Shown: positions 7,854-59,800 of the stretch, piece after piece
Layout of the letters: each line of letters begins with the position of its first letter
Numbering within the stretch: position 1 is the first letter of the stretch
Source of the DNA: an uncultured Gammaproteobacteria bacterium
GTDB taxonomy: Bacteria; Patescibacteriota; Patescibacteriia; Magasanikbacterales; GWA2-37-8
Reading direction: 5' to 3'
Length of the DNA stretch: 64,000 bases
NCBI GenBank assembly: GCA_964536615.1
Contig: CAZHYG010000002.1
Location: 45,000-108,999, forward strand
Made by a program: the position numbers and the translations under genes
Notes under the pieces: generated by a model
Seen by the model: the letters and a program-made list of their open reading frames with translations, nothing else
What the model was told of the DNA's origin: nothing
Databases searched by the model: none

Positions 7854-7943
7854 GGAGAGATGGCTGAGCGGTCGATAGCAACGGTTTACTAAACCGTAGT
7901 CCACGCAAGTGGACCCTGGGTTCGAATCCCAGTCTCTCCGCCA
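7854..7943 (+). tRNA. Type II tRNA (long variable arm), anticodon loop UUACUAA, apparent anticodon ACU (Ser-like, atypical A34)
   Basis: Acceptor GGAGAGA/TCTCTCC + G + encoded CCA; anticodon stem ACGGT/ACCGT at 7881-7897; long variable arm TCCACGCAAGTGGAC; T-arm GGGTTCGAATCCC. Confidence 0.7.
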
Positions 7944-7952
7944 AACACACCT

Positions 7953-8040
<88 letters not shown>

Positions 8041-8070: not shown

Positions 8071-8104
8071 ACACCCCAAAGGGGTGAATCCCTCCCTCTC
8101 CGCA
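8071..8104 (+). pseudogene. tRNA 3'-end fragment (duplicate of the last ~20 nt of tRNA-Ser(GCU): T-arm-like hairpin + AATCCCTCCCTCTCCGC)
   Basis: 'CCCCaaaGGGGTGAATCCCTCCCTCTCCGCA' lies 30 nt after the intact tRNA. There is no 5' half. Confidence 0.4.
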
Positions 8105-8110
8105 TTATAA

Positions 8111-8141
8111 AAACACACGCCTAATAAAGCGTGTGTTTTTG
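8111..8141. terminator. Bidirectional rho-independent terminator (ACACACGC-loop-GCGTGTGT flanked by A/T runs)
   Basis: Perfect 8-bp stem with a T-run on the + side and an A-run upstream (a T-run on the - strand). It sits between the tRNA array (+) and the 3' end of the ATP-grasp gene (-). Confidence 0.6.
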
Positions 8142-8190
8142 CGATGATCAAGAGGAAGAAAATATGAAGTGAAAATTTGTATTAAAAAAT

Positions 8191-9243
8191 TTAAGACCTA
8201 AGCTCCGGAAACATGAGATAGACAAATTCTTTGGTTACCTCTCGAGATTTGCCCTGCATCGGCAGATCATGCATCGCAAACTCAGGCGCGGAATTCATTT
8301 CTATAATTGTATATGTTTCTACAGATTGTGGCTGAGAAAGATCTTTGCACATAAAGTCAATCCCCGACCAACTTAGACCCGGAATTGCTCGAACTGCATC
8401 AATTGCAATTTGCTTAACAGAAGGGTGCGCATTATCAGTTCTATCAACAGCAACACCACCAGCCATAATATTTGAAACTTTTTGCAAACGCACTAACTGA
8501 TCCTTTTTTGGAACAGATTTTTCGGTTAAATCCTGATCTTTAAGCAAGGCAACCGAATTATGATCTAACATAATATGAGGGTACAAATGCTGCGAGATAT
8601 TTCTCAACGGCTTTGTATTTTCAACCTCAATCAACTCACTAACTGTATGAACACCGTCACCGATAATATGGGCCGGGATTCGCTCCATAATGGCAAGCAC
8701 TTTTTCTTGGGTGGCCATAATACGATATTCGTGCCCAACAAACATTTCCTCCAAAATAAGGAGGCCTGGATATAATGGATTTTTAAAATATAATCGAATT
8801 TTTTCTAGACATTCATTAAAATCAAAGAGTTCCATTTCAACACCTTTTCCATGCGATCCTTTTGCAGGCTTAAGAACTAGCGGTTTTTGCAGCGAATCCC
8901 ATATTGATTTAATTCGATCATCGGAATCTGATTGATATATAGTATATCCAGGCATCACAGATAAACCTGATCTTTTAAGCATTACTTTGCATAACTGCTT
9001 ATCGTAGCAAGACTCCACGCCAGTAAAATTAGTAGTACTTGGAATTCTTTCTCTAAAAGTTAGGATTTTATTTTTATATTGCAATTGCACAACGTCGGTA
9101 TCAGGTATCACAAAAGCACTAACACCCATCTTTTGGGCCTCTTCAATAATCATTTGAGTGGACAAAAATGGATCAATTTCCTCTTCTTGCACTTCTCCTT
9201 CGGGTAAAGACCGCACGAAATATAACGGTTTAGATAGCGACAT
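8191..9243 (-). CDS. ATP-grasp fold ligase (RimK/cyanophycin-synthetase-like)
   Basis: ATP-grasp central/C-terminal motifs ('LVLKPAKGSHGKGV', 'IIEMNSAPEF'); 350 aa. Confidence 0.6.
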   Translation of the reverse strand: MSLSKPLYFVRSLPEGEVQEEEIDPFLSTQMIIEEAQKMGVSAFVIPDTDVVQLQYKNKILTFRERIPSTTNFTGVESCYDKQLCKVMLKRSGLSVMPGYTIYQSDSDDRIKSIWDSLQKPLVLKPAKGSHGKGVEMELFDFNECLEKIRLYFKNPLYPGLLILEEMFVGHEYRIMATQEKVLAIMERIPAHIIGDGVHTVSELIEVENTKPLRNISQHLYPHIMLDHNSVALLKDQDLTEKSVPKKDQLVRLQKVSNIMAGGVAVDRTDNAHPSVKQIAIDAVRAIPGLSWSGIDFMCKDLSQPQSVETYTIIEMNSAPEFAMHDLPMQGKSREVTKEFVYLMFPELRS

Positions 9244-9285
9244 ATACTATAAGAATATCCTTAACAAAAAAATAAAAATTAAACT

Positions 9286-10224
9286 CTAAGATAACGCACC
9301 GACAAGCATCTCCGCCATAGCATCCATATACCTGCGAGCATCATCCGATAAAGAAGGCACGCAAACTGCTGGGCGCGAATTTAGCTCAACAAGTTTAAAA
9401 CCTTGATCTGAATTAACAAAATCTGAAGCAAAAATACTTGGACGATACTGCGCTAACTGGAGATTAATTTGCTGAACCATAGCAAGCAATGCAGGGGGTA
9501 TTTGTTCTAGCCGAACCTGAACTTCGCTGCCTCCCTGCGAGACATTTGCCAAAAAAGAACCCGGTTTAGGCACTCGCACCAACATAAAAACCGGATTACC
9601 GTTGATAGTAATAACCCGAATGTCATGCAAACCATCTACAATACCCGGGATACCGACAGAGTTATCTATAAATTCCTGCAGCAAAACATCATTCCAATTA
9701 TCGTATAAGGATTCACTGATTTCGGATACTGGTCGTATATATATGCCTCGCCCGCCGGATAAAAAGTTTTTCTTTACAACAATTTTATCTGCTTGTTTTA
9801 ATTCCCATCCATTAACTACCTGTTCGTATTCTTTATATGAGTGGATGGCGGCGGTTTTAGGTGAAAAGTCTGGAAAAAGCTCAGCGGTAGCGACTTTATC
9901 AACGCAAATCTGATCTAAGTCAGGATGATTAATAATAGCACAATCGTAAATTGCAGGAATTGTATTCTTATCATCACGATTAAATATTAAATCTACGGCG
10001 ATTGGTTCATCTATCGCCACCATAACCCCATCTCGTATCTGCCAACCATTAGAAAACACTCCTTTTCCTACATAAGAATTACCGCGCACTATGTATACAG
10101 CAATATTATGCTGCTCGATATTTTTAACAAGACCTTGATACACTTCCCAGTAAGGATATACGGGAGAATTAAACGGATACCCCATTGGCTCCGGATCGGA
10201 AAAATAAATTGCTAATTTTTTCAT
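9286..10224 (-). CDS. RimK-like ATP-grasp ligase
   Basis: 'KIVVKKNFLSGGRGIYI', 'LVELNSRPAV' ATP-grasp signatures. Adjacent to a second ATP-grasp gene. Confidence 0.65.
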   Translation of the reverse strand: MKKLAIYFSDPEPMGYPFNSPVYPYWEVYQGLVKNIEQHNIAVYIVRGNSYVGKGVFSNGWQIRDGVMVAIDEPIAVDLIFNRDDKNTIPAIYDCAIINHPDLDQICVDKVATAELFPDFSPKTAAIHSYKEYEQVVNGWELKQADKIVVKKNFLSGGRGIYIRPVSEISESLYDNWNDVLLQEFIDNSVGIPGIVDGLHDIRVITINGNPVFMLVRVPKPGSFLANVSQGGSEVQVRLEQIPPALLAMVQQINLQLAQYRPSIFASDFVNSDQGFKLVELNSRPAVCVPSLSDDARRYMDAMAEMLVGALS

Positions 10225-10327
10225 AGTACCTATAACAATAACTCTAACTCCTCAACCTGTCAATTATATTATTGTCTGAAAAAACACCCTGTGATATAGT
10301 AGATTTCTAATCCAAGCTATTCATTTT

Positions 10328-11854
10328 ATGATACAAAAAATACTTGCGGTTTGCGCACTTGCCTCTTTAGCAAATAGCATCATTTCCATACCCGCGTCTG
10401 CTCAAAACACCCAACTTATCGCACCGCAAGAAAACACCGGTTTTTTTCTTGACGCGAAAATTACGTCTGAAAAGAATATCAGAATAGATAAAAAAGCAAT
10501 CTTTGACGCTTCAGAGTCAGTTCTATCAACCCCCACTCTCCCGGCTGAATACATTTGGGATTTTGGCACCGGACCTAAAATAGAAGGCAAAGAAGTAGTG
10601 CGGTCATTTTCTACAATTGGAAAACAGACAGTAACGCTTACTATTCGCCAAGCACAAACACAGGTCAGCACACAAAAAGACATATTTGTGTTTAATAAAA
10701 AAGCATTGCTAATTGCTGACCAGACCAATGTCCCTGCCATTGAAAGCATACAGGCCCAAGCAGCGGAAAATGGCATAGCTTTAGAATTACTGCCAACTGC
10801 AGAAAAGGAAGGAACACTACTCACTGAAGACGCGCTGGTACAAAAAATCAAAGAGGCAACCGATTATATTAAAGATTCAGATATCCTTATTTTTTACACC
10901 CAATCCCCTGTTGGGCTTCAAGCATTTAATTTGTATTGGCGCGATCTTGACCCGGCTACAAAAGAACTGGTCAAAAATAAATTTTTTACGGTTATTTCAG
11001 ATAATAATTTGGATACGGCTGCCAATTTAGCGTACCAGACATTTAATATCATAGAACCAAGCTATATTTTACTCACTCGCCCCGAGGCCATCAATCCGAT
11101 TTTTCTCGCCAAAGACACATCTGATGTGACCGGCATATTGGCGAATCGCGGCATTGAATATAAAATTATTGACAGACGGGGTGAAAAATCTCCGCTATTT
11201 GTACTCTCTCATTTTGTTACCGACCTGGTCTCTCAAGGAGTGTCCTCAAATATTATTTATATAATCTTAATCGTGCCTTTTTTAGCCTGCATTGCCTCAA
11301 TCGCCAAACAAGTTGTGGGTATTAGTGCGTTTGGCGTGTACACCCCCATTATTATCGCCATCTCATTTTTTATTCTTGGCTTGAGATTGGGTATTATCGC
11401 TTTTATCTGCGCAGTAATAATTGGCTATGTTACAAAATATATTCTTAATAAATTTGAACTTTTATACTTGCCAAAAGTGGCGCTAAACTTGGCTTTTATC
11501 AGTTTATCATTCTTGTTTGTCATCTGGCTGGCTCTGGAATACGGCACTTCGGTGCCCCTGTCTATAGCCGTATTTCCGATGCTTGTTATGTCTACGGTAT
11601 CTGAGAAATTTATGGCTGCGCAAAATGAAGAAGGTGTGCGCAGCGCCTTACTGGCAGTTGCGGGCACGCTTTTTATCGTTATCACCTCATATTATTTTGT
11701 AACTTGGACATATATCAACAATGTTCTGCTTGCCTGGCCGGAATTGGTTTTTGTACCAATACTTATCACCATAGCTCTTGGTAAATTTACCGGCTTACGT
11801 TTAGTTGAATACGTTCGCTTTAGAACTTTACTTACCGAACACCAAGAAGAATAA
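10328..11854 (+). CDS. Secreted/periplasmic PKD-like domain protein fused to a C-terminal ~7-TM module (7TM module of the type reported with amidoligases)
   Basis: Signal peptide; 'YIWDFGTGPK..VTLTI' PKD-like motif; roughly 7 hydrophobic helices in the last ~220 aa. Divergently transcribed from the ATP-grasp genes. Confidence 0.5.
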   Translation: MIQKILAVCALASLANSIISIPASAQNTQLIAPQENTGFFLDAKITSEKNIRIDKKAIFDASESVLSTPTLPAEYIWDFGTGPKIEGKEVVRSFSTIGKQTVTLTIRQAQTQVSTQKDIFVFNKKALLIADQTNVPAIESIQAQAAENGIALELLPTAEKEGTLLTEDALVQKIKEATDYIKDSDILIFYTQSPVGLQAFNLYWRDLDPATKELVKNKFFTVISDNNLDTAANLAYQTFNIIEPSYILLTRPEAINPIFLAKDTSDVTGILANRGIEYKIIDRRGEKSPLFVLSHFVTDLVSQGVSSNIIYIILIVPFLACIASIAKQVVGISAFGVYTPIIIAISFFILGLRLGIIAFICAVIIGYVTKYILNKFELLYLPKVALNLAFISLSFLFVIWLALEYGTSVPLSIAVFPMLVMSTVSEKFMAAQNEEGVRSALLAVAGTLFIVITSYYFVTWTYINNVLLAWPELVFVPILITIALGKFTGLRLVEYVRFRTLLTEHQEE

Positions 11855-11855
11855 T

Positions 11856-14204
11856 ATGGTTTTGCCAAATTTTCATAGGCAATCTTTTTTTAACAGGCTT
11901 TCGGGCGTACTCGGAATTAACGCGCGCAATTTATTATACATCAGCAGATTCAACAGCAAAGCAAACAAAAATTTTGCTGATGATAAAATGTTTACAAAAA
12001 ATTATCTGCGCTCCCGCGGCCTTGGGGCAGCCAAGGCATTTACGGTTATTAAGAATTACAACGATCTAAAAAATTTTAACCCAAAAAGCTTGCCTGATAA
12101 TTTTGTCATAAAACCAAATCACGGATATGGCGGCGAGGGTATTATCGTATTCACAGAAAAACACCATGGCCGATTTATTGACATTGCTGGAGACATATAC
12201 GACTGGCCGCGAATCCACCGCCATATTTCTTCAATCTTAGACGGTGAATATGCTATTTCCGGCTTAACTGATCAAGTTATTATTGAAGAACGATTAATTG
12301 CGCACTCATTTTTTAAACCGTACATTGCCAATGGATTACCGGATATTCGTGTTATTGTTTTTAATTACATACCGATTATCGCCATGTTGCGCTTACCCAC
12401 CCAAGCCTCACATGGTAAAGCAAACTTGCATCTAGGAGCTGTCGGACTGGGTATTGACATCGCTACCGGAACGGCAACTTATGGCGTATACCAGCATAAA
12501 CTAATACGCACCTTGCCAAATGGAGAAAAATTAGCACAGATAAAAATTCCGCACTGGGATGAAATACTGCTAACTGCTGCTCATGCGCAAAAAGTAAGCC
12601 AGATTGGTTTTTTGGCAGTAGACCTAGCACTCACTACCTCGGGCATAAAAATTCTTGAGCTTAACGCGAGAGCCGGACTTTCAATTCAAATTGCCAATCA
12701 AGTGCCTTTGAGGGCGCGCTTAGAAAAAGTGAGCGATCTAAAAATTGCATCCCCTGAAAAAGGTGTAGAACTCTGTAAAACATTGTTCGGGTCACATACG
12801 CCAGCGGAAGTAAAACATAATAAAGATACGCATGTTCCTATTAGCTTATTTGAACATGTGGAAATACTGAATACAAATCATAGCTCTGTATTAGCAAAAA
12901 TTGACCCTCATTACGATGGCGCGTTTTTTGATAACAGCCTTAAACCTACAGACGCGCACGATGCATTTCTCGGTATTAAATTAAAAACCAAACGCCTTAC
13001 ACTGCCTGCAAATTTTGGCGATTTAAGCCAGCATAATTACAAAATAATTATTGGCGGTAAATTTCTTGAAGGTTTTAGTATTTATAGCCATCCTAATAAA
13101 AATATTTCAGTACTCGCTCCTGCCACAGACACAACTCGTGAAGAAAAAATAATTGCCAATATTGATAAAAAAATATACGAACTTGATAAAAAAATAAGTA
13201 TTGCTAATTGTCTGCGCCCAATTAACCACGATCAGGAAAAACAAACTTTTTTTGAAAATAGATCCGGATCTCCACAATTTAGATATCGCCCTCTCACCCT
13301 CCCGTTTGCACATCTTAAAAAAGAGCTTGAATCTCTACCAGAATCACACCACACGCTCTATCCAATATACAAACAAAAAATTAAAGAAGTTGGCTTAAAG
13401 CTCAGCCTGCTAGAATCAATGGATACTCCATCCTTTCAAACCGCCTCAGAACAACTGTACGGAGCCGCCAATCGCGTCTTATATGACCAGGCCACACGCT
13501 ATATACATGAACATCCGTTTCAACCCGATACGAGCGACCTGATAAGCTTTAAACAAATTATTAAGCGTCTATCCGTATTTTTAGAGGAGCATAAACTTAC
13601 TCACTGGCGCATAAAAAGCTCTGCCGACCGCGTAAACGATATTTCGATTAGCCTTGATGGAACAATCCATATCCGCACCGGAGTAACGTTTACCGAAAAT
13701 CGCTTGCGCGCCGTAATCGCTCATGAAATTGAAACTCATATTTATCGCGCCGAAAATAGCCATTTGCAAAAATATAAAATTTTTGAAACGGGCACAGCTG
13801 GATATATAGCTACCGAAGAAGGTTTGGCTGTATATAACCAGAACGCGCTCGGCGTACCGCTCGGTGAAAAAGAAATCTGGGCTCCACTGCGTTCCATAGG
13901 GGCGTATTTGGCGCAGGAAATGTCATTTGCGGAGCTGTTTGATTATTTAAAGACAAACTATCAGCTAGAAGACGAATCCGCTTGGCGCACCTGCGTAAAA
14001 GTAAAACGAGGCATTTCCGATACCAGCCAAAAAATGGCATTTACCCGGGATACTATTTACTTTACCGGCTTTCAAAAAATATCTGAATTTATGCGCAACG
14101 CTTCGGCTGAAAAAATTAAATACCTATACTTAGGAAAAATCGGTATTGATGATTTGGAAAATATCGGCCCCTTAAGCCAATATAAAATTAAATATTTAAT
14201 TTAA
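11856..14204 (+). CDS. ATP-grasp ligase fused to a DUF1704-type putative metallopeptidase domain (HExxH; 'EEGLA' = QEGLA-like motif)
   Basis: N-terminal 'FVIKPNHGYGGEGIIVF', 'ILELNARAGLSIQ' ATP-grasp motifs; C-terminal 'IAHEIETHIYR' (HExxH) and 'GYIATEEGLAVYNQ'. Start set to ATG 11856 (MVLPNF) to avoid overlap. Confidence 0.6.
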   Translation: MVLPNFHRQSFFNRLSGVLGINARNLLYISRFNSKANKNFADDKMFTKNYLRSRGLGAAKAFTVIKNYNDLKNFNPKSLPDNFVIKPNHGYGGEGIIVFTEKHHGRFIDIAGDIYDWPRIHRHISSILDGEYAISGLTDQVIIEERLIAHSFFKPYIANGLPDIRVIVFNYIPIIAMLRLPTQASHGKANLHLGAVGLGIDIATGTATYGVYQHKLIRTLPNGEKLAQIKIPHWDEILLTAAHAQKVSQIGFLAVDLALTTSGIKILELNARAGLSIQIANQVPLRARLEKVSDLKIASPEKGVELCKTLFGSHTPAEVKHNKDTHVPISLFEHVEILNTNHSSVLAKIDPHYDGAFFDNSLKPTDAHDAFLGIKLKTKRLTLPANFGDLSQHNYKIIIGGKFLEGFSIYSHPNKNISVLAPATDTTREEKIIANIDKKIYELDKKISIANCLRPINHDQEKQTFFENRSGSPQFRYRPLTLPFAHLKKELESLPESHHTLYPIYKQKIKEVGLKLSLLESMDTPSFQTASEQLYGAANRVLYDQATRYIHEHPFQPDTSDLISFKQIIKRLSVFLEEHKLTHWRIKSSADRVNDISISLDGTIHIRTGVTFTENRLRAVIAHEIETHIYRAENSHLQKYKIFETGTAGYIATEEGLAVYNQNALGVPLGEKEIWAPLRSIGAYLAQEMSFAELFDYLKTNYQLEDESAWRTCVKVKRGISDTSQKMAFTRDTIYFTGFQKISEFMRNASAEKIKYLYLGKIGIDDLENIGPLSQYKIKYLI

Positions 14205-26568: not shown

Positions 26569-29500
26569 TTATTTTTTACGCTTATTCAATTCTTTTAGGG
26601 CTTCTTCAACTTCTTTTATATTATTACCATTTTTCATTCTACCTGTTTCTAGAGCAAACTTAAGCAGGGCCTCTACCCCTCTTTTATCCGGTACTTGTTT
26701 TTCTAAACGACCAAGTAAATCTTGCAAATCCGGAACGCTGCTGTTGTCAAAAATCGCACCAATATCACCCTTAGTGAACTCTTCTACATTTCCTAAATTG
26801 TTCCCAGTTAAACCGACTGCCAATTTTACAAATATATCTTTTGAATCCTCAGATTTGACTACCAACTTTCCATCAACTCCTCGATCCATACTACCTGCAA
26901 AACCAATTACATTTGTAAGTTTAGATCCAGATAAACCATTTTTTCTTCTACCCGCAACATACTCTCTGTCGCCCTTATTTTCTGCATCCACCAAAACTGT
27001 CTTCAGTGTTGCACTATCTATCTTATACAACCCAGCTCTACCCAACGAACCCTGACCAGCAGCTTTTTCATTTTTTAATCTTTTTTGTTCTAACATGGCA
27101 TTCGCCTTATCTCCATATATTTCATTCAATCTTTCTAAAGCTTTTTCTAAACTTGCATGACTGCTTGCATCAACTTTTTCATTTATGAGCTCTGCTAAAT
27201 CTTGAGCTTGTAAATTTCGAATAGCTTGAGGAGTTAGCTCCATTGACTGAGCATTTGACATTCCTACAGCTTCCAAAATTTTGCCTTTAATACCGTCTGC
27301 TACTGCCGCATGAGTACCTAAATTACTTATCTGCATTTCAGACAAACTTCTTTCTAAAATTCTTAAAACTGTTTCTGCGGCTTTTTTAGATTTTTCATCT
27401 TTTGCGCCTGCTATTATTTTTTTCTGGGCTTCGATTCTGGCGAGCTGAGCAGTAGTTTTGGCATCACTCTGAACATAATCGCCGGCCGCATTATGTCTCT
27501 TTATCCTCTCTTCAACTTGATTGTTTATGGTATTTTGCTCGTTATTCGCCTCACTGCTTCTATTTTCATCTCTCAAGACTTTATCGCGTGCTCGAGCGAT
27601 TTGTAAATCTTGCAACTCCTTTACATCAAAATTAAGCTGTTCAGCCATAGCCTTGCTTTTAGCAGGCTCAGTCACTTCTAAACCTTGTTTTAGCAGCTCT
27701 TTTATGGATTCCAATTCTTCAATCTGCTTTTTAGCAGCCAACTCGTCTTCAATTCGTTTTGTTTCTGCTCGCACTTCCGCAGATTTACCTTGTAATTCTT
27801 TCCCTTCATTTCCATGGAGATATTTTTCTAATTTTTCTACTTCTTGTTTTTTATGCTCCTCTCCAACATATTCTTTTTTTACTTTTGCTTCTGCTTTTGA
27901 TTTCATTGATTTATTGAACCGATCAAACCCTTGTCTGGCCTTAAATATATCCATATCATCTAAGCCAAGTTCCCTAAGCTCTTTGTCAACTTCTTCTTCA
28001 GACTTGCCACGCTCTTCACCACGTTCTAAGGTGTGCATTATTTTTTCACGCAATAATTCCATGTTCGCTTCTTTTCCTGCCTTGATATCTGCACCTGTAT
28101 GTTCCAAAAAATGCAACCATTCTTTGGCTTTCTGTTTTTTCATACCAATAGGCAAACTACTTGTACTAGCCAAATGGTCTAACTGCTCATGTTTTGCTTC
28201 AGCGGTAGCTTCCAGATCTTCAGAATAAGCTTTATGGAAAGCACCATATCCAATACCCCATTCCAACCTTGCTCTGGCAAATGTTCTTTTAGCCCAATCT
28301 CCCAAACCTTTCTGATCCACAGTGTCATACTTAATATTACCATGCTCATCTTTTATAATATTACCCTGCTCATCTCTCAAGGCAACTTTTTTCACATATT
28401 TACCCTTTTCATTAACAGCGAAAGTTTTTGAAATTTCCCCAGCCTTAACCGTGCTTTTTGCAAGCCGATCATAATACCAACCTGCTGCCCTACTCTTAAT
28501 ATTATGGCCTCGTCGCTGCCAAGCTTCCCCACCAATCAACGGCATTTTCATTACCGCAAATTTCCCGGCCGCCTTTGCCCCCTCGCCAACTTTACCACCA
28601 GCCCATTTTGCAGCCTGGAAGCCAGATGCGTACATGGCGGCTTTTTTGCCCAACTCACTGGCACTGCCCATCATATGTGCTCCGGCAACGCCAAGCTCTT
28701 CAGCCATTTTTGCCCCAGCCATTAAAATTGCAATGGCGATAATAAAATTTCCCATGTTTTCCCAACTCATTACTTCTGTAATACCTGTTTGTTCTTCGGC
28801 GGGTGCAGCTGATTCTTGCAACAACTGCCCTTGTTTAAGCGAATTATGCTTCACAATATCATCGTGAATATTTCCAGAACCAACTGTAACAAAAGAAAGC
28901 CAGAGAAAAAACGCGATTACCGGACCGGAAACAACGTTACTATTAAATTTTCCCCACCATTCACCGGCAAAATGTTCGGTTTGATGTAATACATTTAAAA
29001 CAAACGCAAATGGAGAAACCACGATAAGCACCCACAACATGGCCATGCGCGCCACAATCATAAACAAAAACGCCAGCATGGTGATAAGCATTGTTACCGA
29101 AAACATGATGGCCGCTACAGAAGCTAGAAAAATTGAAGCAGTGTCTCCGGTAAAATTGTCTCCATTGCCAAGTTTAAATATTTTATCTACCTGAAACATG
29201 TTGACCAAGTTGCCGCTGGCGGTGGCGGCGATACCGTTGAGAAATGTAACCATAACAATCTGCGCCACATCTATGATAAGACCGCAAATTAAACGGCTAA
29301 AATTAACGAGCACAGCTGCTGTAACCAGCTTAACCAGCATATGTTTCCATTCGTAGTGATCCAGACCAAGAATGGTACCGAATGCTATCATTAAAAGCAC
29401 AACCACAAAAAACATATTGGTGAGATCGCGAATCATAACCCAGCCAACCGTAACTGCCGGAGAATCTATGAACCCATTGTAACCAGCGACTTCAATGATA

Positions 29501-29757
29501 AATTTGAGAACAAAAAACGTAAGCTTGATACAAAAACCTGCCAACAAAAATAGCAGACCAGCAAATGCCTTGCCGATAGTTTCGCCAACACCACTTAACC
29601 AACCAGCTTGCGCAAACGGAGCAAAAACAAACCAACTAGTGATGATTGCGCTGGTAATTATAATAAAACTAACTAAGCCTAATTTTTTATGAGAACGAAA
29701 AAAAGACCAGAGCTGTCTGAAAATTAAACGCGCCTGTAGTGCAAATTGAGCAAACAT
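26569..29757 (-). CDS. VirB6/TrbL-like polytopic membrane protein with ~700 aa charged coiled-coil C-terminal extension
   Basis: N-terminal ~350 aa with multiple TM helices; then a long K/E/A-rich heptad-like region (KELQDLQIARARDKVLRDE..). Confidence 0.55.
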   Translation of the reverse strand: MFAQFALQARLIFRQLWSFFRSHKKLGLVSFIIITSAIITSWFVFAPFAQAGWLSGVGETIGKAFAGLLFLLAGFCIKLTFFVLKFIIEVAGYNGFIDSPAVTVGWVMIRDLTNMFFVVVLLMIAFGTILGLDHYEWKHMLVKLVTAAVLVNFSRLICGLIIDVAQIVMVTFLNGIAATASGNLVNMFQVDKIFKLGNGDNFTGDTASIFLASVAAIMFSVTMLITMLAFLFMIVARMAMLWVLIVVSPFAFVLNVLHQTEHFAGEWWGKFNSNVVSGPVIAFFLWLSFVTVGSGNIHDDIVKHNSLKQGQLLQESAAPAEEQTGITEVMSWENMGNFIIAIAILMAGAKMAEELGVAGAHMMGSASELGKKAAMYASGFQAAKWAGGKVGEGAKAAGKFAVMKMPLIGGEAWQRRGHNIKSRAAGWYYDRLAKSTVKAGEISKTFAVNEKGKYVKKVALRDEQGNIIKDEHGNIKYDTVDQKGLGDWAKRTFARARLEWGIGYGAFHKAYSEDLEATAEAKHEQLDHLASTSSLPIGMKKQKAKEWLHFLEHTGADIKAGKEANMELLREKIMHTLERGEERGKSEEEVDKELRELGLDDMDIFKARQGFDRFNKSMKSKAEAKVKKEYVGEEHKKQEVEKLEKYLHGNEGKELQGKSAEVRAETKRIEDELAAKKQIEELESIKELLKQGLEVTEPAKSKAMAEQLNFDVKELQDLQIARARDKVLRDENRSSEANNEQNTINNQVEERIKRHNAAGDYVQSDAKTTAQLARIEAQKKIIAGAKDEKSKKAAETVLRILERSLSEMQISNLGTHAAVADGIKGKILEAVGMSNAQSMELTPQAIRNLQAQDLAELINEKVDASSHASLEKALERLNEIYGDKANAMLEQKRLKNEKAAGQGSLGRAGLYKIDSATLKTVLVDAENKGDREYVAGRRKNGLSGSKLTNVIGFAGSMDRGVDGKLVVKSEDSKDIFVKLAVGLTGNNLGNVEEFTKGDIGAIFDNSSVPDLQDLLGRLEKQVPDKRGVEALLKFALETGRMKNGNNIKEVEEALKELNKRKK

Positions 29758-30812: not shown

Positions 30813-33800
30813 TTAATTTGGCGTTACAACAACCTGCCCCGCAAATGGGGTGTACGCACCAATATTATCTTCACACTCATACTGAGGTATTGCGCCAACA
30901 GATCTATCGTAACACCCAACCCCACCTGAAGTTCCAGCAGATCCACAACTTCCATTACACCAACCCCAGTTATCTTTCAACTGTACAGCTGGTTTGAAGA
31001 CACAACATCCGCCATATAATGATTGGGTTTGCGCATCCGGACAAGTATTAGTCCAGCCGGTACCGTCGCGCGTACATTGATACACATGATCAAAACGGAA
31101 ATAGGCAGAGTCGCAAGTTTGTCCGATAATCTGACCAAAGCTTGGCGCCTTGCTTTCGGCTACACAATTATCCAAATACAAACAATCACTGCCCGACGAA
31201 CAATTTTTTCCGGTATCCAAATCGTATACACCTGCCGCGCCGGAAGAAATCATACACGTACCGCTGCTGCCGCAAATACCATTTACCGTACCGCGTTGAT
31301 TGCGGAAATAACCATCTAACGAAACTATATTGCCATCATTCCAGTCTAACTTAATTTTTTTCAACGGCATCTGATTTTTATCGGCAAAACCATAAAACTT
31401 AGCATTTACTACACCCACATTGGAACTAAACACAACATTACCGCTCGTTTTATCATTAACACTTATACCAGCGCTTAAACCTTCCAAACATTTACCTCCC
31501 GGCTTACAGGTGCCGAGCGGACGCACTTGCGGCGCGCGGTCTGGTGAAGATAATGTTTCGGTAAGATCATACGGACGAACCGCAGATGCATCACCAGCCG
31601 GCAACACACTGCTTATTTGCGTATTATTTTTATAGAAGAAGCCAGCAGATGGTGTCGAGCTAAGAGTCCAGTTCCATACACTGCTAATTTTGGCAAAAAT
31701 TTGCGAGAGGCTTGATTGCGCATCATCAAAATTACGCCCTGAAGCTTGGCCGGTTTGATCGGCGCGCGCGGAAGGATTTGTTTGCAAACAATTTCTGTCG
31801 GTACAAGCGTATGGAGAACCGACCGTTGCTGCAGGCAAAGCCGGAGTTGCGGCCGCATAATGAGAAAAAATTGAAATCAACTGATCCGGAACAAGCAAAC
31901 CTTGCATTGAGACACTGCCAAATGGTGAACCTGCTAAATTATTTTTATAATTTAATCCGGATGGATCTACGGCAAAATTACTTCTCTTCCACAAACGATC
32001 TGTCCAACCGACCGAAGTATATGGCGCATCTTTGGCTGTTTGCGCCACACTGGCACATGTTTCACGAAGACCCGCATATACATTAAATGTAGCATTTTCA
32101 AAATCAGTGCTTTCACCAGTAAAACAAACCAAACTTACATGATCAAGTTTTCCGCTCGCATCAAACATAGCTCGTATCGCACAACCATCATCATTATCAT
32201 CAACATTTTCATGTAAACAATTAGTTTGATAGTTATCGGCTCTTTCCACATCAACACTTCCACAATCTGCGCGAAGTAAATCTCTAAACTGAACTGCTGT
32301 TGTATCATACGGATCCGCATATTGATAATGCGGCAATGAAACCACGTCGCCCTGGCCATCATCCCATCGCATATACCACGCGCTTTTATCACGGCCATCA
32401 GACCAAACTTCTTGTCCGATATTTAACCCCGTTGCCTCTCCTGCAAATAACAACGATGAGTCGTTAACAAGATCTAAATTTGAACCATTGCCTGTAAAAA
32501 CTTGAGTTTGATTTGTATACTTACTTACATATCCATTTCTGATAAAAAATTTATTTGTACCATTAGGGAACCAGTCCGAATTTCCAGTTGCAGAAATCAA
32601 CAAATAATCAATTTCATCTCTGTAAACGGGCGTGCTAGCATTAACGGTCAACACCCTAATAGTACGATCATTTATCTGGTCGCTTTTTACCTCTTTGGTG
32701 CCTAATAATTTATCATAAATGGCAACATCACTACCCAACACACTTGTTACTGTTTGATTGCCTTTAGCATTTAAACAGTAGTATTTACCGGAGGCCTCAG
32801 TTGCTTGAAAACCAGCTTCCACATGCTGATTATTTATATCTAAAGCACCTGTAATACTGTCTTTAGGGAACCAGGTAAGACAAGCAAAACTTCCTTGTTC
32901 AGCATTTATCGGACGCGACAGATCTGGTTCAACGCAATATCCTTGCCAGCCAATGAGTTTGGACTGCTTCTTTAATTTTTGGCAAGTGCCGCCAGAACAA
33001 TCGCTATCAGTTGAACATACCTGATCAGCGTTATCTCCACCCACACAAATACCCGGCACAACACTCTTAAATATTTGCCCACTGCCACCAGCAATGCCCT
33101 GGCTATTCGGGTTATTGAAATTCCAATATCTTGTGAACGAATCACCGTATGATGCTTTGGTGTAACTACACTCGCAAGCATATGCCTTATCTCTGTCGGT
33201 GGTAGAGGTTGGCGATTCAGCACAGACGTTAACCGAGTTAAACAAGACTGAATTTTCTATATTGCTTGTATTTGGGAACGGGGATGTCTCCTCTGGATAC
33301 GCTCGGCAAGATGGCGAGATTGATTGACGAGGAGCGTTACTGGAAGCGTCATCTAAATTTTGCACACAGACTGGATTGCCTGCTCCCATACACACACCAA
33401 TGTTACTTCGACCGCAGGCCAGACCAACTGCATTTGATTTGCAGGCAGTGTTGTTTGGATTTGTGGTTTTACAATTTGCACCGCCGCCACAACCCATAGT
33501 TTTTGCCAAACGCCAATCGGTGTTTGTAGCACTGCCAACATTAACTTCGGATAATTCTTCCAACGGGAATGTATTTAAAATACTAAAGCCGCTAAAATCT
33601 TCTCCGCGCCAATCGGTACTTCGGTTGCGATACGCTGTTTCGGTCAATACTTGACCGCTCAAATCATGGGAATTATCAACCCAATTTGCACAATTAATAA
33701 GGCCATTACCTGTGGAACCTGAAACCTTATTACACCTTCCCACATCGTCACAAACCTCTTTATATGTGCCAGATTGGGGATCGAACACGCGATGCGAAGA

Positions 33801-36800
33801 TCGACACTGCAACCATTCGCCGCATTCTCTATCTCTACTTACTTTCAAAACTACATTAGCATCATTGACGGACGATCCTGAACCAGCAACCGGAGCAACC
33901 AATTCGCCATTTTGCGCTGTGCTGGCCGCATACGAAGCAGCTGTATTCCATAATTTATTTGGAGAATCTGTTTTATCAAACAAAACACAACCATTTTTTT
34001 CACTTACCTGGCCATTACATTGAGTCTGTTGCGATTTTAACTTATCGTCATTTATTAAATAATAAGTTTTATTATTTTCATTTCTGTCAATAAATTCGGT
34101 ACATCCGCTTTGCGCTGCGGCACATTCACCAACAAAATTACTGTATCTACCACTGTCACCATACGACCATAAGCCGTAATTATTGCCGGATTGCAGATAG
34201 CTTGGATAGCAAGCTTGCTCCCCCTTTCCCTGACATGTCGCGCCGCCTGTACAATCACTATCCGAAGAACATAATGCGGAACCTGACGATCCGCCGCCTT
34301 GGCAAACACCCACATCTTTCCAAAACCAACCATTATATTTAACACCATCTTTTACAACATTTTCTTTATAGGCACAAACTTTTTGACCGATAACTGCCGG
34401 ATCCTTAAAGAACAAAGATCCATTTGCCGAAGAATATGCGTTACATCCAACAGCCTCACTCTGACACAATGTTGTATCAAATGAAGCCGGATCTTTCTTA
34501 ATAAATACATCAGTATACACAGGTCCGGTCGGAGTTTCGGTAACTTTTCCGGCTTTGGAACAACCGACATCTACTGCGTTACAGGTTGTATTTCTGCTTG
34601 CAACCAAATATATTGGTGATGAAGTTGGTGTATCTGCTTGCACATACACAGTTGATGTGGAAACTACTCCGCCACCAGCAGTAATTTGAGCAATCGTAAT
34701 GCCGGTGGTATTAACATAACAACCGCTTTGGCCTAGCGCAACCTGGCATGTATATGAGGTTCCACCCATAATCTTTGTAACTGTTTGACCTTCCGGACCT
34801 GACAACCAAACATTATATGCGCGCGGTCCAGGATCATCAGGTGTATTGGCTGTATCAAAGAGAGCAGTGCAACCGATAGCATTTTCACGGCACAGCGAGG
34901 TGAAACCTGTTAAATATATTGAATTATTATCAGGTGTCTTGTATTGAGAGCAGCCAAGTGCTTCTCCTGGCAAGTTATCATTAACATTACTGTCGCATAC
35001 CGGATCAACTTTGAGCGTATTTTTTACCACATATATGTAATCGGAAATTTCTTTGAGGCTGACATTGTCTAAGAATAAACGGCCATTGACTATAAATTTA
35101 AGCTGAGTACTGCTAGCAGAGCCATTTAACTCTACTGGACCAAGATGATAGCTTTGCCAACTATCACCAACACTTACCGTACCCAGAGTTTGCACACTGT
35201 CATTTTCAAGAGTAACGGTTACTGTTTCTCCGGCAGATCCTTTTGCCCAGAAAACCAAATCATAACTTTGACCAGGCGTGAGAGATACGGTTTTAGATAC
35301 GAACTGTGAGCCCGTATATGACAATGAATGTTCGCCGGTGTGGGTTGATTCTAAAGATTGAGTTACTCCGTTAGCGCTCCAACCTGATAGAGCATCGCTT
35401 AATACTGACTGCTCAAAATTATTACTAAAAATATTGCGAACGTTATTGCCAGTATTGCCTTTGTACGCCCGACATGAACTTACTGTGGCTGCACAGGTCT
35501 TACTGGTTCCAGCCACATCTTGAGCACCGCCTGGCAAACCATAATAGAAACATTGCCCATCTCTATATTCACCGTTTTGGAAACATACTTGGCAAGTTTG
35601 CGTACCTGCATCAAATTTACCTTTATCCAAATCACATTTATCTTGACTTGAAGCTACTGTTTCCATTTCCGTGTCATTTAACCGATACGGAGTACACATG
35701 GTAGAAACCGTAATGGTTTTTGACAGCAATTTATAATAAACCTGTCCAGCATCATCGTTAAACTGCCGGCAATCCGGACTGGCTAGACCTGACTTATATA
35801 AAGACTCATTACATACTGCATCATAATCTTCTAACAAACGACTGCTGCGATAAAAATACTTTGGACTGCCATCAGAGTCTTGCTCCAACACAAATGATTT
35901 CAGTTGAAAACCGCCAACTGCAGAACCTTCGTAGGTATAAAATTTCTTTTGTTTGTTTGCGTCAGGCAAAATACATGGACGCAAATATGAGAAGTGCTCT
36001 ACTTTTTCCACGCCATTATTTGTATCACCTAAGTTGGTAAAGCTGGCACAACCTTCGTCAGCAGCGCTACATGCTGCGCCAGATGATGGGATAATATAGG
36101 CAACAGATTGGCCGCTAGAATAGCTGCTTGGCATTTCTTTGTATGCGCTATACCCGACACATCGAGCATCACATTGATCATTCCAAACAATTGCATCGTT
36201 TACAATTTGCGCAGGAGTAAATTTACCCGGAATACGATCTCCGCTATAGCTAGTCGGCTGATACCAGTTACAACTTACTTCATCGGCAATACATGCCGGG
36301 GCATAACTGCTGCATTCTGGTTTTGTTCCTAATTTATTCAAATCACTTGCGCTACGAGGCCAATCTACCGCAAGTGTTGATGTGTCTGTGTCATAACACT
36401 GAGCGTAATATGGCGCCTTCCGCAAATACAAATTATCTGCGGTACTGGCTGTTTTAAACGCACTACAACCATCTGAGTTGGCCGAACAATTTGTAGAAAC
36501 TTTATTATTAAAATAAATAACCGAATTTTCACCGCTGTTTATATCTGCCGGAGAGTAACCAGTCCATTGCCCCGAAGCATTCTTCTTTAAACTATACGCA
36601 GAGCAACCTACGGTATCTTGCGTACAAAAACCAGTATCCAACGTGCGATAGAGATAGCTGACGGTGACCCCATTGGCGTTTTGAAATGATTGGCAAGTGC
36701 GATACTGCGCATCGCATTTATTTGCATCAACTTTCCAAACATTTTTTTCTCTGGTGCAGTAACCTTGAGTGGCACAATTACCGTCTTTATCATAAGCGAC

Positions 36801-56836: not shown

Positions 56837-59800
56837 CTAAACCACGATACTAATTAATTTTCCTTTGACGTAAATAATTTTTTTCGGTTCTTTTCCTTCC
56901 AGCCATTTTTGCACTGCGGGACTAGCCAAGACAATTTCTTTGGCAGCAGCTTCGGTAATTTCTGCATCTACAGAAATTGCATCGCGCAATTTGCCATTTA
57001 TCTGCACCGCCAATGTAATTTCCTGCTCTTTAGTTAGAGCTTCGTTATATTCCGGCCAAACCTCTAAAGCAATGCTGCCGCTATTTCCCAATTGATTCCA
57101 TATTTCTTCGCATAAATGAGGCGCGAACGGAGATAATATTTTTACAAACAAAGCATAATCAGACGCGGCGATCTTTTCTTGCTTAGACATTTCATTTGCC
57201 AGCTCCATCATTTTAGCAATGGCCGTATTAAACCGCATATCATCAATATCTTCCGTCACTTTTTTTATAGTTTGATGCAAATACATTTGCGTCTTTGCGT
57301 CTGACGCGGCTGCGCCGCTGGTTTTTTCCTGCAACCCCCAGACTTTTTCCAAAAACCTTCGTACACCCACCAAACCATTAGTATCCCATTCCACCGCCTG
57401 ATCAAACGGGCCCATAAACATAATGTAAGTGCGCAAGGCATCAGCGCCAAATTGCCCCACCATTTCATCCGGGTTTACCACATTGCCGCGGGATTTACTC
57501 ATCTTTTCTCCGCCTTTTGCCAAAATCATGCCGTGCGATGTGCGTTTTTTGTACGGTTCACTGGTTGGCACAAAACCAACATCATACAAAAATTGATTCC
57601 AGAAACGCGAATACAACAAATGCAGCACCGTATGTTCCATGCCGCCATTGTACCAATCTACAGGCATCCACTGTTTTAATAATTCTTGATTCCAAAAATT
57701 CTGTTCTGCCAATCTTTTTTCACCGCCCAGCGCGTACGCCAAGAAATACCAGCTGGACCCGGCCCAATTTGGCATTGTATCTGTTTCACGCCGTGCTGCC
57801 CCGCCACAATTTGGACATTTTGTTTTTACCCATTTTTCCATAGCGGCCAATGGTGATTCACCTGTATCGGTTGGCTGATACTGTTCAACTTTAGGAAGTT
57901 TAAGCGGCAATTCGCTTTCTGGCAGCGGCACCCAGCCGGTGTTTTTAGCTGAAACAATAATCTCCGACAAAAAGCTGCCGGTATATTGATTAAAATGACC
58001 GAAACCATTTGTTTTATACAGATACCAATCTGATGGATATATTGAACGCGAGGGTTCGGGTACTTTCTCATCGTCTGCAGACCATACTACAGTTTTATTT
58101 TTTACTAATGAGGAAACCAGTTCAATATCAATTGGCGTTTCAATAAATAGTCGCAACAACTCAACACTGTCTTCGTGATCTGGATGATCTTTTTTTCTAA
58201 TATCCCAATATTGCTCTGAATATTTTCCAAATGCTGGCGCAATTAAATACAGTGAACCGATACGTTTTTTATTTTTTGCCAAAACGCTTAAAGCCGCGTG
58301 TCCGCCTAAACTATGCCCTATCACAATATCATTTTCACCCAACTGTTCGACATACTGTTTTAATTCTTCCATCCATTTTTCAAATACAGGCTCATCTTTC
58401 GTAGACATTACTGGCGCCATCACTTCAAAACCCTGCGCTTCAAGCTGTTTTTGCAGTGCGCCTGTAGTCACGCCAGAACTTCTAAACCCATGAATAAGCA
58501 ATACTTTTTGTTTTTTATTTTTACAGTGCTCGCAATACACAAGCGGAATCGGTTCACCCCAATACCGCTGGCGAGAAAATACCCAATCGCGCAATTTATA
58601 ATTTGTCTGCTTTTTGCCGATTTTATTTTTTTCCAGCCAGGCAACTATTTTTTCTTTAGCCTCATCTGAAACTAAACCATCAAATTCTCCCGAATTAACT
58701 ATTCTACCAGTTTCGGTAAATGGTTTATTTTTTATATAATGCTCAAAAAAAACTTTATGACTTGTGGCAAATGTAGGAAGTTTTAAAATCTCTTCAGCAC
58801 TCATCCAACCTCCTTTTACAGTTTCGGCATCAATTATTTCACGGCGAGCGTTACTACCTAGTTGAGCAACAAATACAGAATCGTGGCAAATTTCTTCACG
58901 AGATTTCCTTACTTTATAACCTCGACCATATGCATGCTCAAGCAGAGGTTTAATACTTTTAATATCTGTATAACCTGATTCTTCGGTAACTTCACGTGAA
59001 GCAGTATCTAAAACAGCTTCACCGGATTCAACATGCCCCCCAACAAAACCTTGTAATGCTTCAGAAAAATTAACTACATAAAACAATTCTTTGTCCCAAT
59101 GTTTAATAATGGTGGTAGCTGCACGAAACTCAATAATATTTTGATCACTGCGTGGAGCACCATCTCCAGTTTGCACAATATATGGTGCAACAACTTGTTT
59201 AATCGGCAGCCCAAACTTCTTTGCAAAATCAAAATCACGTTCATCATGCGCTGGCACGCCCATAAGCGCCCCCGTACCAACTCCACCCATTACATAATTG
59301 GTTACCCATACCGACACAGATTCTTTTGATACCGGGTTAACAGCCAATACATCCGTGCGTACACCGGTTTTTTCTTGCTCTTCACGCGTGGTAATTGCAG
59401 CGCGATTTTTTAATTCTTGATCAATATATTGCACCACTTCTGCGCTTGGCTTCCAACCGGCGTCCAGCCAGCTTTTTGCCAGCTCCGGAGAAATAGCTAA
59501 AAAAGTTACGCCAAAAATAGTATCGGGGCGCGTAGTAAACACGGTAACTGAATACGCGCCGTCAGCCTGACCCGGCACACGCAACGGAAACACCACTTCC
59601 GCGCCTTCGCTTTTACCAATCCAATTTTCCTGTTGCACGCGAGCGCGTTCAATATAATTTACATCTTTGAGGCCTTCCAATAATTTATCGGCATATTTGG
59701 TTATACCGAGCATCCATTGTTCTTTGTTTCTTTTTTCTACAGCTGTACCGCAACGCTCACAACAACCCCCAACCACCTCTTCATTAGCCAAACCAATTTT

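Follow-up and report, generated by a model that had tools for sequence, protein, structure and literature searches.

A window of 64,000 nucleotides (contig CAZHYG010000002.1), the whole stretch of DNA analyzed here, carries a locus of four genes, designated A to D, in the genome of a patescibacterium. The initial annotation, which was made from the sequence alone, had delimited four open reading frames (ORFs) at this site, and all of them are present with the boundaries listed in Table 1. Their matches to Pfam and NCBIfam models lie far beyond chance and exceed the Pfam gathering scores. The locus had been viewed as an amidoligase-type system of ATP-grasp ligases and a seven-transmembrane (7TM) partner, and this family assignment is borne out by our searches, since PF14397 (ATPgrasp_ST), PF14402 (7TM_transglut), and DUF1704/TIGR02421 all match as predicted. 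The RLAN family (PF14401) matched none of the four proteins at E values up to 0.01. Systems combining ATP-grasp ligases with 7TM-transglutaminase proteins, a class that includes the RloABC operon discussed below, were reportedly predicted by Iyer et al. in 2009. Our analysis centers on gene C, which encodes a membrane protein with a conserved glutamate end, and on gene D, which encodes a ligase fused to a peptidase; we propose that D may extend and trim the tail of C.

Table 1. Features of the A-D locus. Coordinates are positions in the window; aa, amino acids; bp, base pairs; AF2, AlphaFold2; TM, transmembrane.
Feature	Position	Strand	Description
Gene A	8191..9243	-	350 aa; stand-alone ATP-grasp
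Gene B	9286..10224	-	312 aa; divergent RimK/GshB-like ATP-grasp
Divergent B/C spacer	10225..10327		103 bp; back-to-back promoter-like hexamers
Gene C	10328..11854	+	508 aa; signal peptide, PKD, flavodoxin-like, 7TM_transglut, cytoplasmic C-terminal tail
PKD domain of C	10457..10693	+	aa 44-122; predicted extracellular
Alpha/beta flavodoxin-like ectodomain of C	10697..11233	+	aa 124-302
Seven TM helices of C	11246..11788	+	aa 307-487; supported by both AF2 helices and hydropathy
Cytoplasmic C-terminal segment of C	11789..11851	+	TGLRLVEYVRFRTLLTEHQEE; terminal Glu-Glu codons 11846-11851
Gene D	11856..14204	+	782 aa; ATP-grasp, degenerate retropepsin-like domain, MATCAP
ATP-grasp domain of D	11928..12791	+	aa 25-312; RloC / TIGR02291 type
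Degenerate RimB/RloA-type retropepsin-like domain of D	12828..13091	+	aa 325-412
MATCAP / DUF1704 metallocarboxypeptidase domain of D	13128..14201	+	aa 425-782

Genes C and D Form the Conserved Unit

We counted gene linkage in 80 species-level genome loci from Patescibacteria. More than 120 full-length homologues of D were recovered, with identities of 42-74%; those that carry a lineage label stem from Magasanik-, Kerfeld-, Buchanan-, Peregrini-, and Gracilibacteria and from other Patescibacteria, and a few are labeled just "bacterium." A homologue of C is found directly upstream of D and on the same strand in 74 of the 80 loci, and the two genes often overlap or lie only a few nucleotides apart (as judged from the D alignment extrapolated to its first residue). 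B adjoins the pair in 15 of these loci, and A is present in a single one. The expectation that the four genes would be conserved together thus does not hold; the conserved functional unit is the C-D pair. No alternative conserved partner or neighbor of D was found in 86 loci.

Gene D Encodes a Ligase, a Degenerate Retropepsin-Like Domain, and a MATCAP Domain

Translation of D most likely starts at the ATG at position 11856, as in public gene calls, and not at the TTG at 11805. Its AF2 model (predicted local distance difference test score, pLDDT, of 86.5, and of about 90 or more for the MATCAP domain) contains three domains, not two. The ATP-grasp domain at the N-terminal side matches ATPgrasp_ST with 191 bits and TIGR02291 with 255 bits, the latter score lying under the equivalog cut-off of 314. 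Seven residues of this ligase domain (K86, E144, E145, D256, E268, N270, and R272) are invariant in 45 homologues. The nearest solved folds, as determined with Foldseek, are those of RimK (5zct, 7qys, 5zk6 with RpsF) and ArgX/LysX, while D has no match to TIGR00768, the model of RimK proper.

The C-terminal domain of D matches PF08014 (MATCAP, formerly DUF1704) with 152.7 bits against a cut-off of 27, and TIGR02421 (QEGLA) with 176 bits, in agreement with the initial annotation, in which the EEGLA motif had been taken as QEGLA-like and indicative of DUF1704. Human MATCAP (7z5g) is detected by sequence with an E value of 4e-13, and the modeled domain matches the 7z5g fold in Foldseek with an E value of 1.6e-13, a probability of 1.00, and a TM-score (target) of 0.63. 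The two sequence motifs are HEIETH (aa 623-628, nucleotides 13722-13739) and EEGLA (aa 654-658, nucleotides 13815-13829; TEEGLA when aa 653 is included). The former had been described as an HExxH site; a metal-binding motif is indeed present, but its form is HExxxH, the atypical motif of the MATCAP/TMCP enzymes, in which a Glu residue of EEG serves as the third ligand (PMC10499314). H623, E624, H628, E654, E655, G656, K717, R718, and G719 are invariant in the 45 homologues. The suspicion that this domain harbors a peptidase-like His-Glu-His site is therefore substantiated both by the invariance of H623, E624, H628, and E654/E655 and by the fold of human MATCAP. Judged by profile, motifs, and modeled fold, the peptidase domain of D is a bona fide member of the MATCAP family, with a predicted carboxypeptidase activity.

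Between these two domains lies a third one that had previously been missed. Pfam yielded nothing relevant for it, neither with the window sequence nor with all 28 members, and an hhalign comparison with one RloA sequence gave a probability of 0.5%. We searched a profile of this middle domain against 1.84 billion representative proteins and then ran Pfam on the matches. The search retrieved many stand-alone proteins of 105-250 residues, and ten of the ten that we tested belong to PF05618 (Zn_protease), the family of the retropepsin-like peptidases RimB and RloA. In the alignment, the AKIDPH sequence of D (D350-P351-H352, nucleotides 12903-12911) takes the place of the catalytic AKIDTGA found in those proteins, and D has lost the flap region. 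Among about 108 D homologues, the D[TS]G signature is kept in none; DPH is present in 83, NPH in 6, DLH in 4, and the rest are scattered. Sister proteins of 441-477 residues that consist of ATPgrasp_ST and the retropepsin-like domain, without MATCAP, have kept DTGA or DSGA. The loss of DTG in every MATCAP-bearing homologue examined, and its retention in the MATCAP-less sisters, is consistent with the replacement of one peptidase by another. The single chain of D thus combines a ligase of the RloC type with a dead domain of the RimB/RloA type and a carboxypeptidase of the MATCAP family, and its retropepsin-like domain ties the locus to the RloABC and RimK-RimB systems. The same searches revealed other fusions of RimB/RloA-type retropepsins, among them ATPgrasp_ST with retropepsin and YdjC (P0298, 688 aa), a class-I lysyl-tRNA synthetase with retropepsin (P0329, 539 aa), and retropepsin with RimK (P0281, 454 aa).

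Gene C Encodes a 7TM Protein With a New Ectodomain

The description of C as a protein with a signal peptide, a PKD-like domain, and about seven C-terminal transmembrane helices is supported concordantly by PKD_4 (PF18911, 32 bits), by 7TM_transglut (PF14402, 109 bits over aa 308-501 against a cut-off of 25), and by the AF2 model (pLDDT of 82.8). In this model, the signal-peptide helix and the PKD domain, which resembles the PKD domain of ColG with a Foldseek TM-score of 0.87, are found together with seven transmembrane helices, an amphipathic C-terminal helix, and a short disordered end. With the RloB model NF052267, only the 194 C-terminal residues of C match, with 70 bits against a cut-off of 900. 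A transglutaminase ectodomain in C can be dismissed: PF14400 gives no match, and the modeled ectodomain consists of PKD and a flavodoxin-like alpha/beta domain, the latter filling the position of the inactive transglutaminase of RloB. We found no solved structural analogue of the 7TM module, which has no detectable similarity to any solved transporter.

From the presence of a signal peptide and seven transmembrane helices, the C-terminus of C is predicted to reside in the cytoplasm. This cytoplasmic segment is composed of an amphipathic, basic helix that is conserved, a linker that varies, and a terminal Glu-Glu; the extreme C-terminus reads ...RFRTLLTEHQEE and ends in -QEE. A second conserved acidic cytoplasmic element is found in the loop formed by aa 425-436 (nucleotides ~11600-11635), SEKFMAAQNEEG, in which E426 is invariant and K427, F428, E434, and G436 are nearly so; corresponding elements occur in RloB (ERM...EE(R)G) and in a Halobacterium fusion protein described below. 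In a locus from Buchananbacteria (L001, 10343-11428), the 7TM partner comprises 269 aa and lacks both the PKD and the alpha/beta ectodomain; its -EE end is nonetheless present. The last 4 nucleotides of D in this locus are shared with a DUF4015 gene, an overlap that suggests another lineage-specific accessory gene.

The Oligo-Glutamate Tail of C Is Conserved

Among 96 metagenomic homologues of C, 95 end in Glu (66 with EE, 16 with EEE, 11 with a single E, and 2 with EEEE), and the sole exception is an incomplete sequence. The homologues encoded in the genome loci behave in the same way: all 75 of 75 have a Glu end. While the helix preceding the tail is conserved (GKFTGLRLxEYxRFR), the residues directly ahead of the Glu run vary (TEHQ, REGQ, EKNI, NHTG, RHV, and others). 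Amino acid composition as a cause of the tail can be rejected: of 992 further ORFs with a length of 150 aa or more in these loci, 4.7% terminate in E and just 0.3% in EE. Apart from C, no ORF of 120 aa or more in the window has an -EE end.

We also considered that the tail might be a by-product of a ribosome-binding site or start of D that overlaps the end of C. This is ruled out by two observations. Both glutamate codons are used in the tails (GAA 126 times and GAG 30 times, compared with 908 and 374 inside D), and the tail is kept in eight loci in which D begins 65-439 nucleotides downstream.

The occurrence of the tail tracks the type of peptidase with which the ligase is associated. Partners of MATCAP-fused ligases have it in approximately 100% of cases. 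In the sister systems that have an active retropepsin fused to the ligase, the 7TM partner ends in EE in two of the four loci available. Gammaproteobacterial RloB proteins, whose partner RloA is secreted, end in Glu in only 1 of 120 cases (a phylogenetically narrow set, with at least 63% identity to one Aeromonas protein), and RloB of Legionella likewise has no Glu end. A strict specificity of the tail for MATCAP partners, which we had considered, must be softened in view of the two active-retropepsin sisters that carry it.

Accessory Ligases A and B

The initial annotation had described both A and B as RimK-like. For B, this holds at the level of the Pfam families RimK (PF08443, 37.7 bits) and GSH-S_ATP (30.8 bits). 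A, on the other hand, most resembles the cyanophycin synthetase G domain and the C-terminal domain of GshAB: it matches TIGR02068 (cyanophycin synthetase) with 245 bits over model positions 160-473 of 862 (cut-off 850), residues 166-481 of CphA1 (PDB entry 7lg5) with an E value of 1e-45, and the C-terminal ATP-grasp of GshAB (3ln7) with an E value of 6.5e-39. Neither protein belongs to RimK proper, as their scores with TIGR00768 (38 bits for B and 44 bits for A) lie below the cut-off of 143. A sequence search for a solved relative of B found none.

A aligns across the whole G domain of CphA1 and with the ATP-grasp of GshAB, two enzymes that both join an amino acid to the C-terminal carboxylate of a peptide. 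It differs from them in standing alone, without the N domain and the Mur-ligase-like M domain of CphA1 and without the gamma-glutamylcysteine ligase domain of GshAB. We therefore rejected A as a cyanophycin-like polymer synthetase; it is a stand-alone G-domain-type ligase and a lineage-specific accessory gene, found outside the window only in two (L006 and L013) of the 86 related loci. In the next-closest relatives, a second paralogue of B occupies the slot of A. B itself is a recurrent accessory gene of the C-D system, placed divergently in the Magasanik clade and co-directionally upstream in Kerfeld-like genomes; in one further locus (L098), a B-like gene follows a sister fusion.

Comparison With Known Ligase-Peptidase Systems

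In Pseudomonas aeruginosa, the RloABC system consists of the secreted retropepsin RloA, the 7TM protein RloB with its inactive transglutaminase domain, and the ATP-grasp ligase RloC (PMC12239564). In the absence of the RloA peptidase, deletion of either rloB or rloC acts as a suppressor, which indicates that the peptidase removes a product of the ligase and the 7TM protein; RloA cleaves runs of at least 8 Glu, and polyE peptides or polyglutamylated proteins have been proposed as the substrates (PMC12239564). The C-D pair resembles this system in the 7TM module of C (PF14402), in the ATP-grasp of D (PF14397/TIGR02291), in the position of the 7TM gene directly upstream of the ligase gene, and in the presence of a homologue of the RloA/RimB retropepsin fold, for which polyglutamate chemistry is implicated in the case of RloA. 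There are also differences. The ectodomain of C is built from PKD and flavodoxin-like domains, whereas the 120 RloB homologues carry the inactive transglutaminase PF14400. The retropepsin of D is fused inside a cytoplasmic ligase without a signal peptide, has DPH in place of DTG, and lacks the flap. Furthermore, the locus adds a MATCAP domain, the extra ATP-grasps B and A, and the oligo-Glu C-terminal end, and its host belongs to Patescibacteria, not Proteobacteria. It thus shares two of the three RloABC components by homology and lacks two defining RloABC features, the transglutaminase ectodomain and the separate, secreted DTG peptidase.

A ligase and an antagonistic peptidase also work as a pair on RpsF, whose -EE end is lengthened with glutamates by RimK, while RimB takes glutamates off (PMC12239564). 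The likeness to the C-D pair lies in an ATP-grasp that extends a Glu-Glu-ended protein and in a retropepsin-type antagonist that removes the added glutamates. RimK provides the nearest solved fold to the ligase domain of D, a resemblance at the level of the fold; the D ligase belongs to another Pfam family. Here, the proposed acceptor would be a membrane protein encoded next door and not a ribosomal protein, the peptidase is a predicted metallocarboxypeptidase, and all activities would reside in one polypeptide.

In eukaryotes, tubulin tails are trimmed by MATCAP/TMCP enzymes, which cut off first the C-terminal Tyr and then Glu and which also deglutamylate (PMC10499314). The peptidase domain of D is a true homologue (PF08014, 7z5g, HExxxH, and EEG(LA)) of these enzymes (MATCAP/TMCP1-2, i.e., KIAA0895L/KIAA0895), which together with the TTL/TTLL ligases drive the tubulin cycle (PMC10499314). 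An acidic -EE tail as the proposed acceptor, and an ATP-grasp ligase opposed by a carboxypeptidase, complete the likeness. In contrast to the tubulin cycle, the ligase of D is of the RloC/RimK type and not of the TTL type, the enzymes are fused, the target would be a 7TM protein, and there is no encoded terminal Tyr. LysX and ArgX, which are among the best structural matches of the D ligase, offer a further parallel, since these ATP-grasps act on the C-terminal Glu of a dedicated partner; LysW, however, is a small soluble biosynthetic carrier, and the system includes neither a peptidase nor a 7TM protein.

Gene combinations of the same kind occur outside Patescibacteria. A plasmid of Halobacterium sp. 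DL1 (CP007061; L089, 4173-5927) carries, adjoining transposase genes, an unannotated ORF of 584 aa in which 7TM_transglut is fused to ATPgrasp_ST. This ORF shows that the 7TM/ligase pair is also present in Archaea, and as one polypeptide. The direct fusion argues for physical contact between the ligase and the C-terminal, cytoplasmic end of the 7TM module. On a chromid of Rhizobium sp. T1473 (L090, 4595-8220), an apparent operon encodes an FGase-like amidohydrolase, a MATCAP protein of 628 aa with a 267-aa N-terminus that has no assigned domain, and a GshB-like ATP-grasp, the stop of the MATCAP gene at 7176 abutting the ATP-grasp start at 7177. A gene for a YkuD L,D-transpeptidase lies downstream, and there is no 7TM protein. 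As this operon shows, the pairing of ATP-grasp and MATCAP is older and broader than the link to the 7TM protein.

Proposed Function of the C-D Pair

Our analysis has shown which domains are present, that the catalytic residues and the Glu tail are conserved, and that the genes are linked. On this basis we make a proposal for the function of the pair, in which we infer the acceptor, the added residue, and the regulatory purpose. The initial annotation had left the substrate unnamed; we can now put forward a candidate, namely the oligo-Glu C-terminus of C, which is conserved and predicted to be cytoplasmic. By analogy with the action of RimK and RimB on RpsF, and of TTL(L) and MATCAP on tubulin, D may extend and trim the -EE tail of C, a reading to which we assign a probability of roughly 0.5. 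The RimK/RloC-type ATP-grasp of D would use ATP to couple amino acids (glutamate being the most probable one) to the tail carboxylate, and the MATCAP-type metallocarboxypeptidase would take the added residues off the C-terminus of C again. The length or the identity of the tail could then be a reversible mark on the 7TM protein that sets its activity or its partners. The dead retropepsin-like domain might have been retained for binding the acidic tail or for dimerization. B, and in this lineage A, may be extra ligases for C-terminal carboxylates that attach further or different residues, or an initiator or a cap. Several observations speak for modification of the tail: the nearest folds of the D ligase, RimK and LysX/ArgX, act on the C-terminal Glu of proteins; RloA and RimB, to which the middle domain of D is related, cleave polyglutamate; MATCAP/TMCP enzymes perform their chemistry on the acidic tails of tubulin, and both of their motifs are invariant in D; the Glu end of C is conserved and follows the type of peptidase; the aspartic motif is missing from the MATCAP-bearing homologues; and D directly follows C in 74 of 80 loci, to which the Halobacterium 7TM-ligase fusion adds an argument for physical contact.

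Other observations weigh against this proposal. Modifying a tail cannot have been what 7TM/ATP-grasp pairs did ancestrally or do in general, since proteobacterial RloB lacks a Glu tail and the 7TM module of the Halobacterium fusion does not end in a free C-terminus; two of the four sister systems are without the tail as well. While one of the loci without C next to D is cut by a contig end, five have no C nearby, and in these no neighboring ORF with a Glu-Glu end was found. Moreover, part of the tail conservation reflects common descent within a single superphylum. An enzyme that carries both a ligase and its antagonist would have to be regulated if a futile cycle is to be avoided, and we identified no regulator. 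Finally, the -EE end could be no more than a docking motif or pseudo-substrate.

The last point is part of a rather unlikely alternative in which D, together with B and A, makes a free polyglutamate or short peptide that C exports or displays, while MATCAP trims or recycles cytoplasmic leftovers and the -EE end is just a primer or dock. This scheme, which is also suspected for RloABC, comes closest to the earlier idea of a surface-modification system. RimK makes free poly-alpha-glutamate besides modifying RpsF, and the antagonist peptidases of P. aeruginosa are secreted and cleave at least 8 Glu (PMC12239564), which implies that the ligase product must reach the periplasm, presumably via RloB. 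Export would also suit the tail-less RloB proteins of Proteobacteria, the Halobacterium fusion, and the extracellular PKD and alpha/beta domains of C, and the presence of three ATP-grasps at one locus is reminiscent of stepwise peptide assembly. That resemblance is countered by the absence of A and B from most loci, which means that the function conserved across the loci is not assembly in several steps. We also found no pointer to a secreted or surface substrate, which the initial annotation had envisaged: all catalytic domains of the locus, including both of the peptidase type, lack a signal peptide and are therefore taken as cytoplasmic, and no secreted peptidase gene turned up in the neighborhoods with listed genes. 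A 7TM module without detectable similarity to solved transporters gives no encouragement to export either, and this scheme leaves a near-invariant Glu terminus without explanation, exactly where a carboxypeptidase is fused to the partner.

It is quite improbable, in our view, that D acts on a different cytoplasmic protein or metabolite, e.g., a cell-wall precursor peptide, a cofactor tail, or another Glu-ended protein. C would then be a sensor or anchor that recruits or regulates D via its acidic tail, acting as a dock or pseudo-substrate, and A and B would be independent small-peptide synthetases located nearby by chance. The ATP-grasp/MATCAP pairing without a 7TM protein on the Rhizobium chromid and the five loci in which D has no adjoining C fit such a role, as do the peptidoglycan enzymes among the neighboring genes of some loci and the relatives of A and B, which include ligases for glutathione, cofactor tails, and N-acetylglutaminylglutamine. 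Yet the 86 loci offer no other conserved partner, C is the one window ORF of sufficient length (at least 120 aa) with an -EE end, and pure docking is hard to square with a number of terminal Glu residues that varies between 1 and 4. Hardly credible is a locus that makes a storage or capsule polymer with A as a cyanophycin-like synthetase. The best matches of A are indeed to TIGR02068 and 7lg5, but A corresponds to the G domain only, its score remains far below 850, and it occurs in 1 of 80 species loci, with a B paralogue replacing it in the closest relatives.

If D acts on the tail of C, a wider view becomes conceivable, which we regard as possible but somewhat doubtful. Patescibacteria would possess a tail code on a receptor-like 7TM protein, in which one enzyme with two activities attaches a polyglutamate or an amino-acid cap to the C-terminal -EE tail, takes it off again, and so couples PKD/flavodoxin-like sensing outside the cell to a reversible covalent mark inside. 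Such a code would be a prokaryotic counterpart of the tubulin tyrosination/glutamylation cycle and possibly the source of its MATCAP half.

Our searches of one literature library found no paper that links RimK-type ligases with MATCAP and none on the function of DUF1704/QEGLA proteins, and searches naming PF14402 or PF14397 returned nothing relevant; the bacterial MATCAP/DUF1704 proteins appear to be functionally unstudied. New features of the locus are the fusion of a ligase, a fossil peptidase, and a carboxypeptidase, the new ectodomain, and the conserved oligo-Glu tail on the membrane partner. The locus displays in bacteria the ligase-plus-MATCAP logic of the tubulin cycle, and it turns the substrate question of the ATP-grasp/7TM_transglut class into a directly testable hypothesis that is open to a simple biochemical test. 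The polyglutamylated bacterial proteins reported so far are RpsF and SdeA (PMC12239564). Were our proposal correct, C would join this short list as the third member, the pairing of MATCAP-type tail trimming with an ATP-grasp ligase would predate eukaryotes, and there would be reason to suspect a role in signaling or in the envelope for this gene pair, which is widespread among the metabolically minimal bacteria of the candidate phyla radiation.

Genomic Surroundings of the Locus

The spacer between the divergent genes B and C contains, on the minus strand, TTGACA from position 10263 and TATTGT to 10235, and on the plus strand, TTGTCT from 10272 and TATAGT to 10300, the latter with TG ahead. 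These hexamers are consensus matches only, and the promoter scan as a whole showed no enrichment compared with shuffled sequences.

The locus is preceded by tandem tRNA-Ser genes, both complete, with the anticodons ACT (7854-7943) and GCT (7953-8040). The initial annotation had reported a tRNA-Ser with a duplicated 3' fragment; the duplication is real, but there are two complete tRNA-Ser genes and not one. The repeat comprises 18 nucleotides, gaatccctccctctccgc, of the 3' end of tRNA-Ser(GCT), with positions 8086-8103 copying 8021-8038, and is situated 45 nucleotides downstream of the tRNA gene. The ACT anticodon (ACU, which would read AGU) is unusual, whereas that of the adjoining tRNA-Ser(GCT) is normal. 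The ACT/GCT pair is kept in three Magasanikbacteria-like relatives (L006, L008, and L013), where the gap between the two genes amounts to ~440-460 nucleotides, compared with 9 nucleotides in the window. We rejected the idea of a genomic island at these genes, since synteny with relatives extends over both the tRNA-Ser(ACT)/tRNA-Ser(GCT) pair and the ABC-F, Wzy, and Suf genes in the flanks, and the tRNA fragment is accordingly no island marker. Between the tRNA genes and gene A, a GC-rich hairpin with T runs (~8110-8145) resembles a bidirectional terminator.

Elsewhere in the window, a leucyl-tRNA synthetase of 1156 aa (56837-60307, minus strand) has an unusual architecture, with NUDIX (aa 419-523) and serine-hydrolase (aa 597-774) inserts located between the editing and the anticodon-binding domains. 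Two giant ORFs on the minus strand, of 2537 aa (30813-38426) and 1062 aa (26569-29757), have as their sole Pfam match one CBM_4_9 domain in the larger of the two; they probably encode large surface proteins of a type common in Patescibacteria.

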